From positions 1 to 50,314 of the forward strand of contig JAFTJI010000099.1 of assembly GCA_017456495.1 (NCBI GenBank): a stretch of DNA of 50,314 nucleotides. The letters run 5' to 3'. Both the position numbers and the translations under genes were made by a program. The notes under the pieces were generated by a model, which was given only the letters and a program-made list of their open reading frames with translations, had not been told where the DNA came from and did not search any database. This DNA comes from Lentisphaeria bacterium. GTDB taxonomy: Bacteria; Verrucomicrobiota; Lentisphaeria; Victivallales; UBA1829. This document shows positions 9,115 through 17,524 of the stretch, one piece after another; the stretch's first letter is position 1, and each line of letters opens with the position of its first letter.

Positions 9115-11976
9115 ATGAAAAAATTTTTTGTGCTGCTGGCATCGGCAGTTTTAGCAGCAGTTACGGCGGCACCTGTTCCGCAGGATCAGAAACCGTCAAG
9201 TTACAAGTTTGATCTGACCGGAAAAGGCTTAAAAAAACTCTCCTCCGGTGCGTGGCTCTGGAAGATCCCGGCAAATAAGGAACAGCAGAAAATCGTCTTC
9301 GATCTTGATGCGCTCAAAATCATGCCAAATGATTTTGACGAGATCAGGGTCCTCATGAAAAACACAAAGGCGAATTCCGGGCTGATGGTCCGCATTACGG
9401 ATTATCCCTCCAAAGATCAGCTCCGCAGCTGGTATTCCAAGACGGATATTCCCCTGAACAAAGTGACCGATCTGCGCTTTGATCTGCGTTTGGATGATGA
9501 TGGCTGGTGGCACGGCACGAAGCCAAGAGGCGGACGGAAACTGGAGATTTCTCTCATTAAGAAATACCGCCGCACACCCGGTGAGCCCCCCGACCGGGAA
9601 ACAGAAATTTATGCGATCGAACTCATCCGCCGCAGTGCCGATATCTCTTTCGATGAAATCAAAGCAACGCTGGAAACCACATGGTTCAGCTATGTCTGGC
9701 GTTATGAACTGAATATTCTCAACCGGGAATCCTCCGAACGGAAGATCGACCTTGTCCTTGATACAAAAGGCCTCAAATATTTCAAGCCGAGTTGGACAAA
9801 AAAGAGTTTGAAACTCAAGCCCCGTGAAATGGTGACGATCCCCCTGGAACTTTCCATCAGCAAACGCGATGCCGCAAAGCTCCCGGTTCTTTACAGTGAA
9901 CGGGTTCTGCCGAAACTGATTTTCCCGGATGCCCCGGAAGTCTTCCCCCTCATGGGATACCGTCCCCGTTATGTCTGGGGAACGATCCCTCTGACAGAAA
10001 TCAAGTATCAGCTGGATCTTCCCAAAACGGAAGCTGACAGGAAAAAACTCATTGCCGAAGCAGACAGAGATGTTGCGAGACCATTCAGTGTTCCGCCGCA
10101 AGTCGTCCCGGCATACTGCGCTGTCTTCAAGCCCCGTGAAATGGAAGCTCTCAGCTTCTTCCGTGTCCGTGACCGGAAAACCGGAAAAGATATCAGCAAC
10201 CTGCCGAATGTGACAGCTTCTTACATTTACCATCACAATCAGCAGACATTCTCTGCTATCAAGCGGATGGGCCAGGCTTACAAGTTGACCGGCAACAAGG
10301 CTTATGCGGAAAAGATCCGGGATATTCTTCTGGAATATGCCTACTGGTTCCGGTTCCTGCCGCCTCAGGCGCCTTCCTCCACTTCCGGCGGATCACGTCT
10401 GACCTTTACGACCCTTGACCTCAGCTACTTCCTTGCTGACGGCGCAGAAGGTTACGCGGCAGTCAAAAACTCCGGAGTCTTCGGAAAACGGGATATAGAT
10501 CTCATCGAAGAAACCATTTTCCTGCCGCTGATGAAAGAACTTTATACTCATAATATTGAGTTCACCAACATGCAGCTGCACCATATTACAGCATACGGAA
10601 CTTCCGCAATCGTTCTGAACCGGGCACAGAACCTGTTCGGCGACGCACTTTACGGTGACCATGGGTTCCACAGTTTTCAGGACAAAGGTTTTACCGCTGA
10701 CGGTATGGCACTGGAAGGCGGGGTCTACCACTGGTACGGCGTTGTGCCCCTGCTGAAGTTTGCCGATAAAATGCGGGGAACCGGGATCGAACTCATCGGC
10801 AAAAAGTTCAAACCCATCTATGACTACGGAATCAACAACTCCCCCAACGGCGTTGCCGAAGCGACTCTCCGCAACACCTATGTTGAGGCTTGGAGACTCT
10901 TCAAAGATGAAAGATATCTGCCCACGCTGAAGTTGATCAAAAAGCTCCCCGAAGGCATTGATCCGAAAACCGTTCCCGATACTCTTGATCTGCCAAGCGC
11001 ACTCCAGAAAAACAACGGTTATGCTTGGCTCCGCGAAAGAAGCAAGTACGGTTTCCGAGCTGTTGCCATCAACTGGATCATGGGCTGGGATCGTCTGGAA
11101 CATGACCGCCTGAGCTATCGTCTGTTCGATGAAAAAGGGATGATCTCTCATGAAGTCCACCGTGTCGGCTACACCAATCCGGGCGCGGATATGGAAGCAA
11201 CCATCTCCCACAACACAATCGTTGTTGATGAAAAAGATGCAGCTCCCAATTCCTCAACGCTGGCAGTTTTCCTTGACAGAAAATCCATGCCGGCGTTCCT
11301 GATTACAGAAAATCCGGAATCCCGGCTCTACCCCGGCATTGATTTCTCCCGTGCCATGGCGATTTTCGACGGCATCATCTTTGTCGGTGACAAGGTTCAT
11401 GCCATCGACGGGAAAACCCATACCTTTGACTGGCCCTTCTACAATCCGTGGCAGCCCTGGACAAAGCCGGGAAAACTGGAATTCAACGTTCCCGGCAAGT
11501 TTGACAAACAGCTGAAGACCAGCTATAAACATGTAAAGAGTTCTTACTGTTCCCCTGCTGCAGACGGTTTGAAAGTGAACGTGGATATTCCGCAGTCCAC
11601 CGCCCTGCGCGGCTTTGATGTCCGCCTGAAACCGGATAGAAAGCTCTATCTGAACTTTGCGCTCCCGAACCAAACAACGGTTGCCAAGTTCATGATCGGA
11701 CGCGGTCACAATCCCAAACCGGGTCCCATGCTTCTGCTCCGTCAGACAGGAAAAGGTGCAGAGTTCGCCTGTGCGTTTGATATCGTGAAAAACGGCGCAA
11801 CGCCCCGGATCAAATCTGTCAGAAGCGTGCCGTTCACTCCGGCACACCCCCTCTCTGCAGTCTGGGAAGTCAAAGCGGATTCCGGAACCTACTACGTCAT
11901 CGTGAACAGAACCGGAAAAGAACTCAAATTCGGAAACATGAAAACAACCAATAAACTGGAGGTTATAAAGAAATGA
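9115..11976 (+). CDS. Secreted polysaccharide lyase-like protein (alginate lyase/heparinase II-III fold)
   Basis: Signal peptide; motifs AYKLTGNKAYA, EGGVYHWY, TISHNTIVVD. Confidence 0.7.
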   Translation: MKKFFVLLASAVLAAVTAAPVPQDQKPSSYKFDLTGKGLKKLSSGAWLWKIPANKEQQKIVFDLDALKIMPNDFDEIRVLMKNTKANSGLMVRITDYPSKDQLRSWYSKTDIPLNKVTDLRFDLRLDDDGWWHGTKPRGGRKLEISLIKKYRRTPGEPPDRETEIYAIELIRRSADISFDEIKATLETTWFSYVWRYELNILNRESSERKIDLVLDTKGLKYFKPSWTKKSLKLKPREMVTIPLELSISKRDAAKLPVLYSERVLPKLIFPDAPEVFPLMGYRPRYVWGTIPLTEIKYQLDLPKTEADRKKLIAEADRDVARPFSVPPQVVPAYCAVFKPREMEALSFFRVRDRKTGKDISNLPNVTASYIYHHNQQTFSAIKRMGQAYKLTGNKAYAEKIRDILLEYAYWFRFLPPQAPSSTSGGSRLTFTTLDLSYFLADGAEGYAAVKNSGVFGKRDIDLIEETIFLPLMKELYTHNIEFTNMQLHHITAYGTSAIVLNRAQNLFGDALYGDHGFHSFQDKGFTADGMALEGGVYHWYGVVPLLKFADKMRGTGIELIGKKFKPIYDYGINNSPNGVAEATLRNTYVEAWRLFKDERYLPTLKLIKKLPEGIDPKTVPDTLDLPSALQKNNGYAWLRERSKYGFRAVAINWIMGWDRLEHDRLSYRLFDEKGMISHEVHRVGYTNPGADMEATISHNTIVVDEKDAAPNSSTLAVFLDRKSMPAFLITENPESRLYPGIDFSRAMAIFDGIIFVGDKVHAIDGKTHTFDWPFYNPWQPWTKPGKLEFNVPGKFDKQLKTSYKHVKSSYCSPAADGLKVNVDIPQSTALRGFDVRLKPDRKLYLNFALPNQTTVAKFMIGRGHNPKPGPMLLLRQTGKGAEFACAFDIVKNGATPRIKSVRSVPFTPAHPLSAVWEVKADSGTYYVIVNRTGKELKFGNMKTTNKLEVIKK

Positions 11977-13160
11977 AAAGATTGCTGATCGGTGCGATTG
12001 CGATCGCAACATTGGGAGTTCAGGCTGAACTCAAAGACAAGGTGTACAGATTCATGCCGCTGCAGAAAGATCTGACCGTTCTCTCTGCAAAGGGTGCGCC
12101 CACCAATGAGGCGAAATATAACAGAAAATCAACAGCATTGACCCCTGATTTCAAAGAAGCAGCTGTCAACGCCCCCCGCTTCTGGAATGGCGGTTTGCTC
12201 ATTGAACACGGAGGAAAAACGCTGGAACGCGGTGCAGTCAACTGCCTGCCTGCCGATGGAAAGATCTTCTCCGTTGCAGGAAAAAAAGTCGCCGGAGTTT
12301 ATAATCAGGAAGGGCTTGAATTTTTCGGAACATGGGAACTCAATCCCGTCAAACATCAGCCCATGCTGAGCGGTTCTTACACCTTCTCTTTCTATGCAAA
12401 AGGTTCCGGAACTCTTTCTGTAACTCCGATCCTGAAAGTCGGCGGCAAAGACAAAGCTCTGCCGGAACAGAAGTTTGCTCTGACCGGAAACTGGAACCGT
12501 TATTTCATGAAACTGGATGCCGGAGCAAGAAACAAACCGGCTCAGATGGCGGAAACCATCCGGGCAAAGTTCCAGGGTCAGAATGTTGTCATCTCCGCAC
12601 CCATGCTGGAAGGACCTTCTGTTTATCCCAATATCCATGCACCTACAACCTATGTCGCCCCCGGAAAATTCCGTGAAGCAGATAAACTTTCTCTGTCTGT
12701 CATGACTCCCGAACTCGGCAATGCAGGTGCGGTTGCATTCAACTGTACTCCGCAGGTGATTTGCGGCTGGTTCGATCTCTTCGCCACTGATGGAAGCTGG
12801 AGACCCCAGATCGCTCTCAGCTACAATATTTATCACAAACATGCTTACCGCTATCAGGTCATCTATCATGGAAAAACCTATAATTCCAGGAACATCGCTT
12901 TTGAAGCCGGAAAGACTTATCACTATGTTCTCAACTGGGACAAAGATAAGTTTGCTCTCTGGGTCGACGGTGTGAAAGTCATGGAACACAAGGTTGCAAG
13001 CAAGCCGCTGACCAAGAAAGATATCTGGATCGGCAGCCGTTCCATTCAGGCTTCTGCCAACGGTGCATTCAAAAACTTTGCTATTTTCAATCAGGCTCTT
13101 ACAGATGCAGAAATTCAGGAACTTGCAAAGAATCCTGATCTTTCCGCAAAACTCCGCTGA
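11973..13160 (+). CDS. Secreted protein with CBM-like and LamG/concanavalin-like domains
   Basis: Signal peptide; YTFSFYAKG; YHYVLNWD...LWVDG...FNQALTDAEI. ATGA overlap with the upstream gene. Confidence 0.75.
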   Translation: MKRLLIGAIAIATLGVQAELKDKVYRFMPLQKDLTVLSAKGAPTNEAKYNRKSTALTPDFKEAAVNAPRFWNGGLLIEHGGKTLERGAVNCLPADGKIFSVAGKKVAGVYNQEGLEFFGTWELNPVKHQPMLSGSYTFSFYAKGSGTLSVTPILKVGGKDKALPEQKFALTGNWNRYFMKLDAGARNKPAQMAETIRAKFQGQNVVISAPMLEGPSVYPNIHAPTTYVAPGKFREADKLSLSVMTPELGNAGAVAFNCTPQVICGWFDLFATDGSWRPQIALSYNIYHKHAYRYQVIYHGKTYNSRNIAFEAGKTYHYVLNWDKDKFALWVDGVKVMEHKVASKPLTKKDIWIGSRSIQASANGAFKNFAIFNQALTDAEIQELAKNPDLSAKLR

Positions 13161-13183
13161 CGAAAATTCGGTTTGAACATGAC

Positions 13184-13212
13184 AAGCCCGCAGAACTTTC
13201 TGCGGGCTTTTT
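13184..13212 (+). terminator. Intrinsic terminator
   Basis: AAGCCCGCAGAA-ct-TTCTGCGGGCTT followed by Ts. Confidence 0.8.
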
Positions 13213-13238
13213 AACACTGATCCCGATAAATGTTGGTA

Positions 13239-13538
13239 TTTGGGGAAGCGGAAAAAACTTTTGAGGAAAGTCTTTTCCGCTTCCCCAAGCCCCATCACCT
13301 TTTTCAAACCTTTTTGCGGCATATCAATTTTTTGCAAACAAAAAATTAATATGCCATCTTAAAAAAGTTTGGAAATTATCAAATAACCTAAAGCGCTGTT
13401 CCCCATACAGGTGGGTAAATCCATCTGCTATTTCAACTTTAAGATGGCATTTCGATTTTTACATCGTAAAAATCGGAATGCCGCAAAAAGGTTTGGAAAA
13501 AAGGGGTGGAGTTTGAGGAGGGGAAAAAGCACTTTCCT
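13239..13538. repeat. Long palindromic REP/MITE-like element whose right arm is interrupted by IS110 (continues at 14956-14980)
   Basis: Arms pair: AAACCTTTTTGCGGCAT with ATGCCGCAAAAAGGTTT; ATGCCATCTTAAA with TTTAAGATGGCAT; GGGGAAGCGGAAAAAACTTTTGAG with CTCAAAAGTTTTTTCCGCTTCCCC. Confidence 0.8.
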
Positions 13539-13653
13539 TGTATATTACTCCCCAGTTATCAGATAGCAGCAGCTCCCTTTGGCGAGAATGGGATTGCCAC
13601 TCGTCGGAGCCAAAGGTGAAGAGCTGCTGCTTGACAAATGAAAAAGTTATGCT

Positions 13654-13844
13654 ACGGTAACTTGTGTGTATTTTCGGTTGATCTCGAAAAAACACACGGA
13701 AGATGCAGTATGAGATCCTTTCCAGATCGTAAAGATCGTTTTTGAGGTAATACGCATCTTCCGTTACCGTGCTCTTCACAAAAGGTCGTAAAAACCATCT
13801 TGAACTAAAAGTTCGTATAGTTGCAAGGATGACCAGTGAGGCAC
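13654..13844 (+). ncRNA. Predicted IS110 bridge RNA (target- and donor-binding loops)
   Basis: Two stem/internal-loop/hairpin modules whose loops match the target (CTTTCC, TTTTGAGG) and the donor junction (AAACCATCT, TGCAAG). True 5' end uncertain. Confidence 0.8.
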
Positions 13845-13873
13845 AACAGCAATATACAATGGAAGGGATTAAA

Positions 13874-14938
13874 ATGCAAATCCAAAATCAAAAATTATGG
13901 GTCGGAATTGATGTTGGCTCCAAGTCTTTTCATGCAGCATTGGATTTTCCGCAGCTGTTTGAAAACCAACCCATGCTCTCTGTGTCAGACTTGCCGGAGC
14001 GTGAATTTAAGTTGACTAATGCCGGTACAAAAAGTTTTTTAAGTTGGGTTCAAGCCCTGCAAAGTGATTTTTTTGCCTTGTATTCAGAAGATCCCTTTGA
14101 TGATTTGCCATTGCATATCGTAATGGAATCCACGGGGGTTTATTCGATTCAGTTGGAAAAAATGATTCTTGCCTTATTTCCCTATGCCAAGGTTGTTATT
14201 GCTAATCCTGAACCAATAAAGGCATTTTCTATCTCTTTGAATATCAAAAATAAAACCGATAAAATAGATGCACAGGTCATTGCCAGATACGGCCGCGAAC
14301 GCACACCTGTTGCTAAAAGAAAAATGTCGGCAGAAATGGAAAAATTGCGTTCTTATGCCCGAGCCAGATCTTTTTTGAAAGATCAGAGGATAGCGTTGGG
14401 GAATTATCACGACAATATCATTGATTCTCTGGCAAAAAGAATGTGCACAAATGTTGCTAAATCAATAGACAAGGAAATTGCCGGACTGGATCGGGAAATT
14501 GATAAGATTGTTTTAAGCGCTCCGGAAATCAAGCATGAAGTGGATATAATGACATCTATGCCAGGGATAGGTCAGGGAACAGCAGTAATGTTACTTGGGG
14601 AGTTAGGATCACTTAAAGATTATCCCACCCGCCAAAAGATAACAGCTATGAGTGGGTTGAATCCTGTAAGAAAGCTATCCGGAACAAGTGTAAATCAAAC
14701 TAAATTAAGTAAGAAAGGGTCTCCGCTTGTCAGAAGATTTCTTTATATGTGTTCCAAAACAGCAATGCCCCGCATCCCGGTATTACAGGATTTGTATAAT
14801 AGAGTGCTTGCTAAAGGTAATACCAGAATGCAGGCTCGTTGTGCTGTGATGAGAAAGATGTTATTAATTCTCCGGGGAATGGTCATAGCCGATAAAGAAT
14901 TTGATAAAAATTATCAAAATATTTCAAAATCGGCTTGA
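13874..14938 (+). CDS. IS110 family transposase/recombinase (354 aa)
   Basis: GIDVG, MESTG and KTDKIDA (DEDD); PGIG and LNP...SGTS. ATG at 13874 follows RBS GGAAGGGA. Confidence 0.93.
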   Translation: MQIQNQKLWVGIDVGSKSFHAALDFPQLFENQPMLSVSDLPEREFKLTNAGTKSFLSWVQALQSDFFALYSEDPFDDLPLHIVMESTGVYSIQLEKMILALFPYAKVVIANPEPIKAFSISLNIKNKTDKIDAQVIARYGRERTPVAKRKMSAEMEKLRSYARARSFLKDQRIALGNYHDNIIDSLAKRMCTNVAKSIDKEIAGLDREIDKIVLSAPEIKHEVDIMTSMPGIGQGTAVMLLGELGSLKDYPTRQKITAMSGLNPVRKLSGTSVNQTKLSKKGSPLVRRFLYMCSKTAMPRIPVLQDLYNRVLAKGNTRMQARCAVMRKMLLILRGMVIADKEFDKNYQNISKSA

Positions 14939-15000
14939 CTTTAAGCAAACCATCTCAAAAGTTTTTTCCGCTTCCCCAAAATTCCAATCTTTATCAGATC

Positions 15001-17235
15001 TTACAGAGAACACTCGTATTCTGCAAACAGATCTTTCTGCAGGAATGTCGAACCGTTCGGCAGAACAACACGACAGGGGACTCCGGCGGGGATCGTCAAC
15101 GCCAAACGGAATTTTCCGTTCTCTTTCTTCCAATCGACTGTCACTTTTCCGCTGGCAAGTTTGCTGCTTACCCGCAAAGAATCCAATTCCTGCGGCGCAA
15201 ACGGCTTGATCGTCAACGCAGAAAAACCGGGAGCGGTTTCATCCGGCACGATTCCGCCTAAATACTGGATCATCCACGCCGCAATGTCTCCATACATGAT
15301 GTGACAATGAGACGAAAAACCTTTCCACTGCTCCCACAGTGTTGTTGCACCGTGATTGATCCAGTTCACCCAGCCCGGATAGGCAGGCTGCATCAGGATC
15401 CGGTAGGCAGTCTCGCCATAGCCGTAATCGGAAAGAACACGCAAGATATATTTTGATCCGAGGATCCCGAAGTCGGACTTGTAATTCCGAGCGACAAAAA
15501 GATCGTTCAGACGTTTTGCGGTTTTGGCTGACTCCGACTCCGGACACAATCCCCAATAAAGGGCTGTTGCAAGGGCGGTAACGTCATCATCACGTTCAGG
15601 TGTATCTGCACATCCATAAAGACCTTCCCCGCGGTAAAACGCTTCATGAAACGCCTTTTTGATGGACTCCGCAAGTTCCGCAAAGGCAGCAGCATCCTCT
15701 GTCTTTCCAAGAAGCGCAGCCGTCTTTTTCATCATAACAGCATCGGCATAATAATAGCCGGTAGATGTGATCCGGGTATCAGTCATGCGCTGCAGATCTA
15801 CCGGACACCAGTCGCCAAGCCCGAAGGAAAGAATATGATCCGTCGCCATGGTGGAAAGATACTTCATATACTGCTTCATCCTGTCATAATTCTCTTCCAG
15901 AATGCGCGTTTTTCCGGTATAGACATAAATATACCACGGGATCAGCAGAAATGCACTGTCCCACGCCGGACCGTTCCCCCAGTTGAAGCCCCAGCCATTA
16001 CTCGGAATGATCGCAGGGAACTGTCCGCTGGGACGCTGTGCGTCGCCCATTGTCTGAAGCCAGTCATAATAAGAAGATTCCAGGTCATAGTGAAACAGCC
16101 CCATCTCTGCAGCCATAAGCGCATCCCCCGTCCAGCCGTTCTTTTCACGGTGCGGACAGTCCGTCGGGATCCCGGTGAAGTTGTCAATGAAACTCCAATG
16201 GGTATTTTCATGCAGTTTGTTCAGAACAGGATCGGAACTTTCAAACTCTGTAAGAAACTCAAAATCCGTATGTACAACGCACCCGGATATCTCCTTGATC
16301 TCTGCCACGCCTTCGATTTCGACCCGGACATAACGGAACCCATGATAAACAAAACGCGGCTCCCACTCTTCAATGCCAGCCCCTTTCAGAATATACTCAT
16401 CCGTCTGAAACCGGTCGGAGGTCACATAGGGTTCCAAATCTTTCCGGTCGATATTACATTGGTAATGATCCATCAGCTCAGAATAGATGAACTTGACTTT
16501 TGCTCCGGCTTCTCCCTGAACCTTGACGTTCACCCAGCCGGTAATGATCTGCCCGACATCATAAACCACCGCATCTTTGGGCGGACCGGGAACGACTTTG
16601 ACTGCCGGAAGCCGCTGCATCACCTTGCAGGCAGGCATGATCTGCTCCGTCAGGATCCCGCCGGGTCCCGGAACAATACGGGCTCTCTTCCAGCCGGAAT
16701 CATCAAAGCCGACACAGTTCCAGCCGGGCATCTCAAGTCTGGCATCATAAATTTCGCCTTCCCGCAACGCATCGAACCGGATCGGACCTTCCACGCCGGA
16801 ACACTTCCAGCCGGAATCAGAGACAACAACTGCAACACCGTCACAATCAAGTTCAAGGATCATTTTCGGATAATCGCGCCATGCCGCACGCTCAAAATAC
16901 CAGGTATTTTCCGTGCTGCAGTTGTACCAGCCGTTCCCGAGGATCACGCCGAAAACATTCTCTCCTTTCCGGAGCTTTGCGGTAAGATCATACCGCAAAT
17001 ATCTGGAACGTTTGTCATATTGAGTAACAACAGGCTGCAAAACGCCGTCATCAACTTTTTCGCCGTTGAGATAAAGTTCAGAATATCCCAGACCGCAGAA
17101 AAAAACTTCCGCCTTCCTGGGCAGCGTATCAAGAATAAAAGATTTCCGGAAAAAAGGAGCCGGTTTGACCGGTGATGTCCTGCCGACAGCCCCACCCGCT
17201 CCGATCCATTTACAATTTGCAAATAATTCAGCCAT
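15001..17235 (-). CDS. Alpha-L-rhamnosidase, GH78
   Basis: PTDCPHREKNGWTGD, GATTLWEQW, SHCHIMYG, FVYHGFRYV. ATG at 17235 follows RBS GAAAGGA. Confidence 0.9.
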   Translation of the reverse strand: MAELFANCKWIGAGGAVGRTSPVKPAPFFRKSFILDTLPRKAEVFFCGLGYSELYLNGEKVDDGVLQPVVTQYDKRSRYLRYDLTAKLRKGENVFGVILGNGWYNCSTENTWYFERAAWRDYPKMILELDCDGVAVVVSDSGWKCSGVEGPIRFDALREGEIYDARLEMPGWNCVGFDDSGWKRARIVPGPGGILTEQIMPACKVMQRLPAVKVVPGPPKDAVVYDVGQIITGWVNVKVQGEAGAKVKFIYSELMDHYQCNIDRKDLEPYVTSDRFQTDEYILKGAGIEEWEPRFVYHGFRYVRVEIEGVAEIKEISGCVVHTDFEFLTEFESSDPVLNKLHENTHWSFIDNFTGIPTDCPHREKNGWTGDALMAAEMGLFHYDLESSYYDWLQTMGDAQRPSGQFPAIIPSNGWGFNWGNGPAWDSAFLLIPWYIYVYTGKTRILEENYDRMKQYMKYLSTMATDHILSFGLGDWCPVDLQRMTDTRITSTGYYYADAVMMKKTAALLGKTEDAAAFAELAESIKKAFHEAFYRGEGLYGCADTPERDDDVTALATALYWGLCPESESAKTAKRLNDLFVARNYKSDFGILGSKYILRVLSDYGYGETAYRILMQPAYPGWVNWINHGATTLWEQWKGFSSHCHIMYGDIAAWMIQYLGGIVPDETAPGFSALTIKPFAPQELDSLRVSSKLASGKVTVDWKKENGKFRLALTIPAGVPCRVVLPNGSTFLQKDLFAEYECSL

Positions 17236-17275
17236 GTTATTTCCTTTCAAAAAAAAAGAATCAGCGGGATATTCC

Positions 17276-17524
17276 TCACTGATTCCAATTTTCAGATGCT
17301 TTCCGCACCATATCGTGAAACTCTTCACGGGAAACATCTTCCAGACGTTTCCCTTTCCTTGCGAGCTGCTCATTCACCTTGATCGCCGTCTCCGACATCC
17401 GTTCATGAGTCTCTTCACTTCCACCCGCAAGGACAAAGTTTTCTCCTTTTGTCAAGCGTTTATGCCCGTCTCCGCCGTCAAGACCGAGACCGAGCATCAT
17501 CGCTTTTTTATCACCCTCCGGCAT
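17276..17524 (-). CDS. Conserved small hypothetical protein
   Basis: LGLGLDGGDGHKRLTKGENFVLAGGSEETHERM; RBS GGAGG-like region; tightly spaced after the secretin gene. Confidence 0.7.
   Translation of the reverse strand: MPEGDKKAMMLGLGLDGGDGHKRLTKGENFVLAGGSEETHERMSETAIKVNEQLARKGKRLEDVSREEFHDMVRKASENWNQ

Follow-up and report, generated by a model that had tools for sequence, protein, structure and literature searches.

The question posed by the left end of the element

The window considered here, by which we mean the whole stretch of 50,314 nucleotides from a Lentisphaeria bacterium (contig JAFTJI010000099.1), carries an insertion sequence (IS) of the IS110 group in which a recombinase gene is preceded by a long, structured, non-coding left end. 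In principle, such a left end can be understood in fundamentally different ways: Either it encodes a bridge RNA, with guides for target and donor DNA, or it is a mere leader of the recombinase mRNA. An original prediction, made from the sequence letters, had proposed a bridge RNA whose guides match this insertion's own target and donor, together with a recombinase orthologue from a host of the Planctomycetes-Verrucomicrobia-Chlamydiae (PVC) group. We conclude, with a probability of roughly 90%, that positions 13651-13844 encode an IS621-like bridge RNA of an IS110-group element in a gut Lentisphaerota (Victivallales) bacterium. The features on which the argument relies are as follows.

13539..14955, plus strand: IS110-group insertion sequence of 1417 bp, right-hand CT core included; junctions read in the sequence
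13537..13538, no strand: CT core dinucleotide, left copy; read in the sequence
14954..14955, no strand: CT core dinucleotide, right copy; read in the sequence
13651..13844, plus strand: predicted bridge RNA in the limits of the covariance model (match to model R1 with 229.8 bits, E 6.4e-60); the actual ends may differ
13663..13697, plus strand: 5' stem-loop, TGTGTGT...ACACAC with inner CG/CG pairs, from the minimum free energy (MFE) fold; helix 2, two of five pairs compensatory
13698..13762, plus strand: target-binding loop; helix 3 with 12 of 15 and helix 4 with three of four pairs compensatory
13698-13706 and 13754-13762, plus strand: outer closure of the target loop, GGAAGATGC and GCATCTTCC; read in the sequence
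13718-13723, plus strand: left target guide CTTTCC, equal to the left target
13725-13737, plus strand: inner hairpin of the target loop, GATC-GTAAA-GATC; read in the sequence
13740-13746, plus strand: right target guide, within TTTTGAGG (13740-13747)
G13747-U13748, plus strand: candidate handshake dinucleotide of the target loop (AU in the L024 type)
13774..13841, plus strand: donor-binding loop with outer stem CTTCAC/GTGAGG; helices 5-7, 13 of 17 pairs compensatory
13784-13789 and 13829-13834, plus strand: donor-loop stem GGTCGT / ATGACC; read in the sequence
13792-13800, plus strand: left donor guide AAACCATCT, identical to the last 9 nt of the element
13802-13814, plus strand: inner hairpin of the donor loop, GAAC-TAAAA-GTTC; read in the sequence
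13822-13827, plus strand: right donor guide TGCAAG; five Watson-Crick pairs and one G-T wobble with CT-TGTA
G13828-A13829, plus strand: candidate handshake dinucleotide of the donor loop, complementary to the TC preceding the core
13874..14938, plus strand: recombinase gene, 354 amino acids plus stop, frame intact, with the ribosome-binding-site-like GGAAGGGA at 13861-13868

The element joins its surroundings as ..GCACTTTC-CT|TGTATATTACT.. on the left (the element's first bases being TGTATA) and as ..GCAAACCAT-CT|CAAAAG.. on the right (AAACCAT-CT). Terminal inverted repeats and a target duplication are lacking at the element and the same CT stands at both junctions, as is characteristic of the IS110 group. 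A non-coding left end of 335 nt precedes the ATG, and the stop codon is followed by a right end of only 17 nt, in agreement with the long left and short right end of this group (Durrant 2024, PMC11208160). The ends, TGTATATTA... and ...AAACCAT-CT, are found again in relatives, at 14 junctions on the left and 42 on the right. The core is CT at 14 of 17 left junctions, the exceptions being L035 (TT), L036 (CG) and L063 (CC), while all right junctions of the relatives listed finish with CCATCT.

Architecture of the predicted bridge RNA

The 191-nt stretch of the original prediction folds at -66.2 kcal/mol, compared with -40.98 +/- 4.23 for shuffled sequences (z -5.96; none of 200 as good). It shows a 5' stem-loop and, after it, two internal loops, each of which presents a left guide in sense and a right guide in antisense orientation. 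This is the architecture of the IS621 bridge RNA, as had been claimed, and the individual motifs, loop closures and inner hairpins are all located where they had been placed; the CT core, too, was read correctly at both junctions.

The guides of the window copy taken by themselves are of unequal weight. The left target guide matches six contiguous of nine positions, with an A instead of a U opposite the second core base, and when scored like those of the relatives the guides of the copy fit at 5/7 positions and one core base on the left side and at 5/5 positions and both core bases on the right side. When the stretch was dinucleotide-shuffled 5000 times and the position of the match was left free, a 6-nt left target match was reached 1009 times, a 7-nt right target match 654 times and a 6-nt right donor match 1065 times. 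The 9-nt left donor match was reached by just 14 shuffles, and all four matches jointly by none. In the window by itself, only the 9-nt match thus surpasses chance, and the case therefore rests on the covariation at fixed positions among relatives, which lifts it far above chance.

Candidates for the handshake dinucleotides, which in IS621 lie 3' of the core-pairing bases and contact the other DNA through base pairs at positions 6-7 (Hiraizumi 2024, PMC11208158), are present in both loops. The donor-loop GA is complementary to TC, which stands before CT in eight of the 12 distinct left flanks; a C at position 7 is found in 11 of them. The target-loop GU faces the donor AT, with which it can pair via one wobble. 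The dinucleotides hardly vary, and both observations are consistent with the handshake model.

Covariation of guides and flanks among relatives

Relatives were collected from genomes of the same family, 12 of 60 of which contain the recombinase, and from a species-representative collection, which yielded 38 loci, nearly all from metagenome-assembled genomes (MAGs) titled Lentisphaeria, Victivallaceae or Victivallales. A 23-nt scaffold pattern added five metagenome contigs, and 17 non-redundant close copies of the RNA were extracted from all sources. These are 85-98% identical apart from two short segments directly 5' and 3' of the first-loop GATC hairpin. The variable segments fall into about six classes that track each copy's own flanks, while the second loop and the element ends are nearly invariant. 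Guides, given in target sense on the right side, and flanks compare as follows.

Window and L025: left guide CCTTTCC, left flanks (A)CCTTTC-CT / CACTTTC-CT; right guide CT-CAAAA, flank matches
L024 type: left guide CCTTTCCT; right guide CT-AAAAA
L030 and L031: left guide AAAATTCCT, left flanks AAAACTC-CT / AAAAGTC-CT
L032: left guide AATTTTTCC, left flank AATTTATC-CT
L033: right guide CT-GACAA, right flank GACAAGG
L034: right guide CT-GATAA, right flank GATAAGG
L035 and L036: left guide GCCGCCC(T/C), flanks GCCGCC-CT / CCGCCC-CG; right guide CT-(C/A)CAGG, flank ACAGGG
L065: left guide CCTGCTCCT, 9/9 on its own flank; right guide CCTCCGGA, 8/8

On the left side, dereplicated guide/flank pairs match at 75 of 91 positions, compared with a permuted mean of 47.48 (none of 100,000 permutations as high); a one-base shift of the left register was permitted for own and permuted pairs alike. 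On the right side, 41 of 50 positions match, compared with 22.98 (10 of 100,000 as high). Note that the copies are related, such that the permutation counts overstate independence; the cross-tables are nonetheless clearly diagonal. The most instructive pair is that of L033 and L034, where a single guide-base difference (GACAA versus GATAA) is mirrored by the same difference in the flank. The right guide of the L024 type, CT-AAAAA, corresponds to the majority loop of the REP-1 palindromes (repetitive extragenic palindromes, REP) of the genome, and L025, which is 98% identical to the window copy and shares its guides, resides in ACCTTTC-CT-CAAAAGG. In seven of the 17 relatives (L024, L026, L027, L028, L039 and others of the type) the right donor guide is TACAAG, a perfect match.

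The idea that the first loop arose by capture of the target sequence was considered and rejected, because its arms have opposite sense relative to the target, the left arm being sense and the right arm antisense. Sequencing runs were available as assembled contigs (24 runs), and the window was compared with four runs, of which one was a DNA library and three were RNA libraries. Among these, a contig of run X8 (with a loose end before window position 13745) has the left guide of class D together with another right guide (..GATCGACCCGC plus AGG), and the target classes therefore exceed the six tabulated.

The structure is conserved in distant orthologues

For the 17 close copies, RNAalifold returned 49 pairs, three of which are compensatory. 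A covariance model built from this alignment matched the plus strand upstream of the gene in six loci (E 1e-16 to 1e-19), the recombinases of which are only 38-44% identical at the amino acid level. In the resulting alignment of 20 sequences, seven helices are formed, 97.1% of cells are paired and 32 of the 49 pairs are compensatory; none of 500 shuffles was as good, a count that overstates the support insofar as the alignment is model-fitted and the sequences are related. In slid controls, where the partners were moved by one to three columns, pairing dropped to 29-44% and compensatory pairs to six or seven.

In those distant loci whose ends could be located from their second-loop sequences, the guides also correspond to their own flanks when compared by eye. 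This applies to L064 (left 9/9, right 5/5), L020 (left 7/10, right 5/5) and the right guide of L014 (6/6). L015 has a CA core at all four guide positions, and its guides fit its own flanks. Further afield, model R1 was run with filters off against the left ends of three plasmid IS110 loci of about 30% identity (E. coli, Acidisarcina and Herpetosiphon) and gave a best E of 0.99-1.3, a null result that is silent on whether those elements own bridge RNAs. In a sample of the phylum comprising 151 genomes, the RNA was found in five, all from one order.

The recombinase

The protein contains the Pfam domains DEDD_Tnp_IS110 (PF01548) and Transposase_20 (PF02371) and matches the NCBIfam equivalog NF033542 'IS110 family RNA-guided transposase' with 157.9 bits at a cut-off of 140 (residues 9-337). 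Its best solved relative is the IS621 transposase (8wt6; phmmer E 1.2e-23, and 6.4e-44 with a profile of 10 sequences), followed by ISCro4 (PDB 9t56; E 8.9e-23, and 3.4e-43 with the profile). In the pairwise alignment, E85, D129, D132 and S269-G270 stand opposite E60, D102, D105 and S241-G242 of IS621, whose catalytic residues are numbered according to Hiraizumi 2024 (PMC11208158). D13, part of the motif W-x-G-x-D-V, is invariant in ten of ten relatives; the pairwise alignment to IS621 starts only at residue 80. A 45-residue N-terminal piece gave no useful match to Pfam. Relatives on plasmids (1791 records) are all less than 60% identical overall and less than 31% identical among the rows listed.

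Translation from an alternative ATG at 13829, which is in frame and overlaps the 3' stem of the RNA, would lengthen the protein by 15 residues (MTSEAQQQYTMEGIK); the frame from this codon is open in 11 of 20 copies examined. The ATG at 13874, which resides behind GGAAGGGA, is the more likely start.

The original prediction of a recombinase orthologue from a PVC host is thus supported, since the protein exceeds the equivalog cut-off with IS621 and ISCro4 as its closest solved relatives, and the related loci are titled as MAGs of Lentisphaeria or Victivallaceae, i.e., Lentisphaerota of the PVC group. Both comparisons proposed along with it also spoke in its favor: Folding and covariation across orthologues gave the z of -5.96 and the 32 compensatory pairs reported above, orthologues of 38-44% identity included, and the sites of other copies follow their loops, with L062 on the right and L027 on the left as misfits.

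REP-like palindromes as targets and the hybrid site

The 12-mer read by the guides of the window copy, CTTTCCTCAAAA, occurs 15 times in the genome, and 14 of these occurrences lie in the loops of REP-like palindromes, ten of them of the GGGGAAGCGG, three of the GGGGAGAAAAGAG and one of the GAGGAGGGG type. Another 14 palindromes carry ACCTTTCCT(A/G)AAAAGG. In the vicinity of the element, the following palindromic sequences are found.

13241..13289, minus strand (hairpin 13231-13297): intact REP-2 palindrome 250 bp upstream, the loop of which is the uninterrupted target CTTTC-CT-CAAAA
13515..13536, plus strand: left flank, REP-1-type left half (GAGGAGGGGAAAAAG plus CACTTTC) of a GAGGAGGGG-type palindrome
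14956..14979, plus strand: right flank, REP-2-type right half (CAAAAG plus TTTTTTCCGCTTCCCCAA) of a GGGGAAGCGG-type palindrome

The intact palindrome is located in a nested cluster of palindromic repeats (13225-13536), parts of which recur on many contigs of the same genome (G000); the cluster also has two 17-nt hairpins (GGCATATCAATTTTTTG and GGCATTTCGATTTTTAC types) and an imperfect inverted repeat of 60 nt. Insertion of IS110 elements into REP loops was reportedly noted by Tobes and Pareja in 2006. REP-like palindromes of gut Lentisphaerota thus act as landing pads for the element.

The two halves that border the element probably do not belong together. This bears on the claim that the guides match the insertion's own target and donor, which stands for the donor (9/9 at the left donor) and cannot be taken at face value for the target: What had been rebuilt as one site is a hybrid with a left half of REP-1 type and a right half of REP-2 type, and the synteny of sister genome G019 assigns these to different insertions. 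There, the orthologue of the right flank (L073) has an uninterrupted REP-2, ..GACTTTC-CT-CAAAAGTTTTTTCCGCTTCCCC.., beside the same rhamnosidase gene and is an empty site. The orthologue of the left flank continues into a gene that in G000 follows immediately after an IS end stub, on contig C168. Most likely, C80, the contig of the window, passes through the repeat from one insertion into another, be it by an assembly join or by real recombination between two IS copies.

Weighing the explanations

We regard it as somewhat probable that the RNA is a genuine bridge RNA and that the copy in the window is a decayed or chimeric one, two insertions having been joined by assembly stitching or IS-IS recombination. 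Besides the mismatched halves and the G019 synteny, this is favored by the end stubs at the edges of C27 and C168, which are 96-97% identical to the window copy, and by a contig of DNA run X1 that links the right end of the IS to a GAGGAGGGG-type (REP-1) right half. On the other hand, the recombinase frame is intact, both ends are canonical, and the nearly identical L025 with its identical guides sits in ACCTTTC-CT-CAAAAGG. Furthermore, both candidate sites contain CTTTC-CT and (C/A)AAAA, and the guides therefore fit either of them. The 16-mer of the rebuilt target, GCACTTTCCTCAAAAG, is present intact once in the genome (C146), and in a search of the same genome for the left-flank partner of the right-hand insertion, C8 proved to have the syntenic gene and then to run into other repeats. 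A chimeric origin concerns the record and not the nature of the RNA and can be compatible with the interpretation as a bridge RNA. Very improbable, in contrast, is an explanation that would replace this interpretation, namely that the structured left end is merely a leader of the recombinase mRNA for translational or transcriptional control and that the matches to the flanks are due to chance or composition. It would agree with the frequency at which shuffles of the window sequence reach the 6-7-nt target matches at free position (13-20%) and with the in-frame ATG at 13829, which overlaps the 3' end of the structure. It fails to account for guides at fixed positions that covary with the flanks over about six classes, including the single-base pair L033/L034, for a second loop that equals the element end at nine of nine positions (14 of 5000 shuffles) and for a layout kept at 38-44% protein identity. 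We give even less credence, practically none, to an IS1111-type element with a seekRNA-like guide. The protein superfamily is the same; however, IS1111 elements have their RNA in a long right end and subterminal inverted repeats of 7-17 bp (Durrant 2024, PMC11208160), while here the RNA resides in the 335-nt left end, merely 17 nt follow the stop codon, and no such repeats were seen on reading both ends.

Several observations weigh against the interpretation as an IS621-like bridge RNA or limit the support for it. In the window copy, the left target guide fits only six of nine positions, just one of the four short matches exceeds chance at free position, and the flanks, each belonging to another REP family and probably to another insertion, do not allow the copy's own target to be rebuilt from the contig. 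Among the relatives, there are two clear misfits, L062 on the right (0/5) and L027 on the left (2/7), and from the donor-loop sequences no ends were found for L016, L017 and L021 and no left end for L014. The shuffle counts for the structure overstate their support, as stated above, and the first Asp, D13, lies outside the pairwise alignment to D11 of IS621. The Rfam search gave 25 matches (E up to 10) in 13000-15500, none inside 13500-13870 and none, among the matches listed, naming a bridge-RNA family. Finally, the contigs of the four compared runs contained no joint of a circle junction and yielded no usable RNA starts or ends, and contig coverage in the RNA libraries is no proof of expression.

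Candidate promoters and a conserved leader hairpin

In the model of Durrant 2024 (PMC11208160), excision to a circle creates a promoter, with the -35 element contributed by the right and the -10 element by the left end. Corresponding sequences, together with a possible second start site and a further conserved structure, can be recognized here.

14935..14940, plus strand: TTGACT, candidate -35 half, 15 nt from the element end, with the recombinase stop codon inside
13541..13546, plus strand: TATATT preceded by TG, candidate -10 half of the circle-junction promoter
13559..13634, plus strand: conserved leader hairpin, MFE -37.9 kcal/mol, with invariant CGAGAATGGG and ACTCGTCGGAG
13631..13658, plus strand: possible internal promoter, TTGACA (13631-13636), 16 nt, TACGGT (13653-13658), preceded by TGC

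Joined on the circle, TTGACT and TATATT would sit 17 nt apart. The sequence TGTATATT occurs 183 times in the genome and has TTG at -35 distance in 96 cases, compared with 6/61, 4/88 and 23/156 for permuted controls. What looks, from sequence, like the main promoter pattern of the host is TGTATATT(AC) with TTGnnn 16-18 nt before it (e.g., C98:1657, C214:11909, C42:12441), and the enrichment therefore suggests that the element ends mimic a host promoter. Within the left end, the -35-like hexamer is kept at the internal-promoter spacing in relatives, and an IS621-like RNA of about 180 nt could possibly start from the internal promoter near 13661. A consensus promoter scan called neither the internal TTGACA-16-TACGGT nor the junction promoter, the latter in a linear scan. 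One pair of helix 1 (13651-13660 with 13764-13772) varies between C-G, U-G and one U-A, which hints that the RNA starts further upstream than the internal promoter predicts. Helix 1 might enclose both the 5' stem-loop and the target loop and thereby form a three-way junction, which has no counterpart in IS621. Contigs break at 13566-13568 in DNA as well as RNA runs, and these breaks are therefore not transcript ends.

The leader hairpin has five compensatory pairs among 16 consensus pairs in 13 sequences (L014 and L020 could not be aligned and were excluded), and some of its G-U pairs are possible on the plus strand only. Counting duplicates, 31 of 85 loci contain its motif, which is missing in the three plasmid IS110 loci of about 30% identity and in L081, L014, L020 and L065, the last having a variant. 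In the passages of the literature consulted, such a hairpin is not described. We tentatively raise the idea, which we consider doubtful at present, that the hairpin with its invariant CGAGAAUGGG and ACUCGUCGGAG is an undescribed functional module of the guide RNA of this clade. Since it lies between the promoter rebuilt on the circle and the possible internal promoter, it would be limited to circle-derived transcripts and, if functional, could make production of bridge RNA or recombinase, processing of the RNA or assembly of the complex dependent on the excised state.

Proposed course of recombination

Starting from the architecture, the covariation of base pairs and of guides with flanks, the catalytic residues and the REP-loop targets observed here, and relying on analogy with IS621 for transcription, circle formation, catalysis and programmability, we envisage the following mechanism. 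Excision would bring TTGACT and TG-TATATT together at a distance of 17 nt to form a promoter of the host type, and this junction promoter would transcribe the left end and the recombinase gene. In the target loop, the 5' arm carries the same sense as the left target (CTTTC-C) and the 3' arm is antisense to CT-CAAAA; the donor loop corresponds likewise to the joined ends of the element, AAACCAT-CT and CT-TGTA. The left guides could then anneal to the bottom strand on the left side of target and donor, and the right guides to the top strand on the right side of both. Recombinase dimers on both loops would keep the circle junction close to the loop of a REP-like palindrome, and Ser269, with D13, E85, D129 and D132, would cut after CT. 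Strand exchange may be aided by the handshake dinucleotides GA (13828-13829, opposite TC) and GU (13747-13748, opposite the donor AT).

Further copies and surroundings of the element

The genome of the window, a MAG of 233 contigs, contains one assembled full copy of the element, one assembled copy of the RNA and IS end stubs at the edges of contigs C27, C168, C140 and C16. Those on C16 (24728-24823) and C140 (1-119; loci L004 and L005) represent a second, diverged variant, the right end of which is 78% identical and the left end of which diverges beyond TGTATATTACT. Its RNA is absent from the assembly. This variant sits at ..CCGTCGCC-CT / CT-ACAGGGC.., consistent with the L035/L036 guide class. 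Locus L039, identical with L022 (G020:C128), is a copy interrupted after about residue 102 of the recombinase and followed by unrelated sequence; its left flank has a repeat cluster in common with the window. Copies L026, L033 and L035 are 73-83% identical and reside on short contigs (1.5-4.4 kb) of MAGs titled Acutalibacteraceae or Faecalimonas (Firmicutes), which can be explained either by a mis-binned repeat contig or by inter-phylum transfer.

The genes beside the element encode a Laminin_G_3 / carbohydrate-binding protein (11973-13160) and, on the minus strand, a four-domain alpha-L-rhamnosidase (15001-17373), i.e., functions of ordinary glycan degradation.

Comparison with known systems

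Bridge recombinases are wanted as compact programmable tools for DNA insertion, and better enzymes came from new orthologues. The roughly six first loops that are naturally retargeted on a near-constant scaffold constitute a ready specificity panel, and the element is only about 30% identical to its plasmid-borne relatives. A practical consequence of its mobility is that it breaks, and may mis-join, contigs of MAGs. The known mechanism is unchanged by our findings. Bridge RNAs were predicted in 85.7% of IS110-group elements (Durrant 2024, PMC11208160), and one is therefore expected here. A full-text literature search returned no paper tying IS110 or bridge RNA to Lentisphaerota names, while the orthologue tables of Durrant 2024 may already list the element.

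Among the characterized systems, the IS1111 group resembles the present element in the recombinase superfamily and in the RNA-guided two-loop logic and differs, as described by Durrant 2024 (PMC11208160), by a guide RNA in the right end and long subterminal inverted repeats, neither of which is found here. For ISPpu10 of Pseudomonas putida, all insertions are described as residing in copies of a single intergenic repeat able to form a stem-loop (10.64898/2026.03.19.712850). This is reminiscent of the exact target 12-mers here, of which REP-like palindromes harbor 14 of 15 in their loops; however, the stem-loop of ISPpu10 is a GC-rich 5' extension beside the target, whereas here the cut site lies inside the palindrome loop. 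ISCro4 / IS622 shares the domain order and differs in the respects given below for IS621.

The closest parallel is IS621 of E. coli with its 177-nt bridge RNA. Both elements combine a DEDD RuvC-like domain with a Tnp domain that provides the catalytic Ser, and both have the RNA in the left end, with a 5' stem-loop followed by target- and donor-binding loops. The variable first loop, the conserved second loop and the position in the long left end correspond to the general description by Durrant 2024 (PMC11208160). In both systems the left guides are sense and the right guides antisense, all spanning the CT core, the handshake dinucleotides (candidates in the present element) lie 3' of the core-pairing bases, REP-type repeats are the targets, and the -35 and -10 sequences (likewise candidates here) reside in the right and left end, respectively. 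The differences are those of a distant relative: The proteins are related with a phmmer E of 1.2e-23 and can be aligned from residue 80 onwards only, the spacing between first Asp and Glu is about 72 residues here and 49 in IS621 (D11-E60), corresponding to an insertion of about 22 residues, the right target guide pairs five bases plus the core instead of the four-base guide of IS621, the left guide of the window copy fits six of nine positions, and a conserved leader hairpin (about 75 nt) comes in addition. We thus conclude that the element is built, and presumably works, like IS621 and is a further example of a known mechanism rather than a new one.

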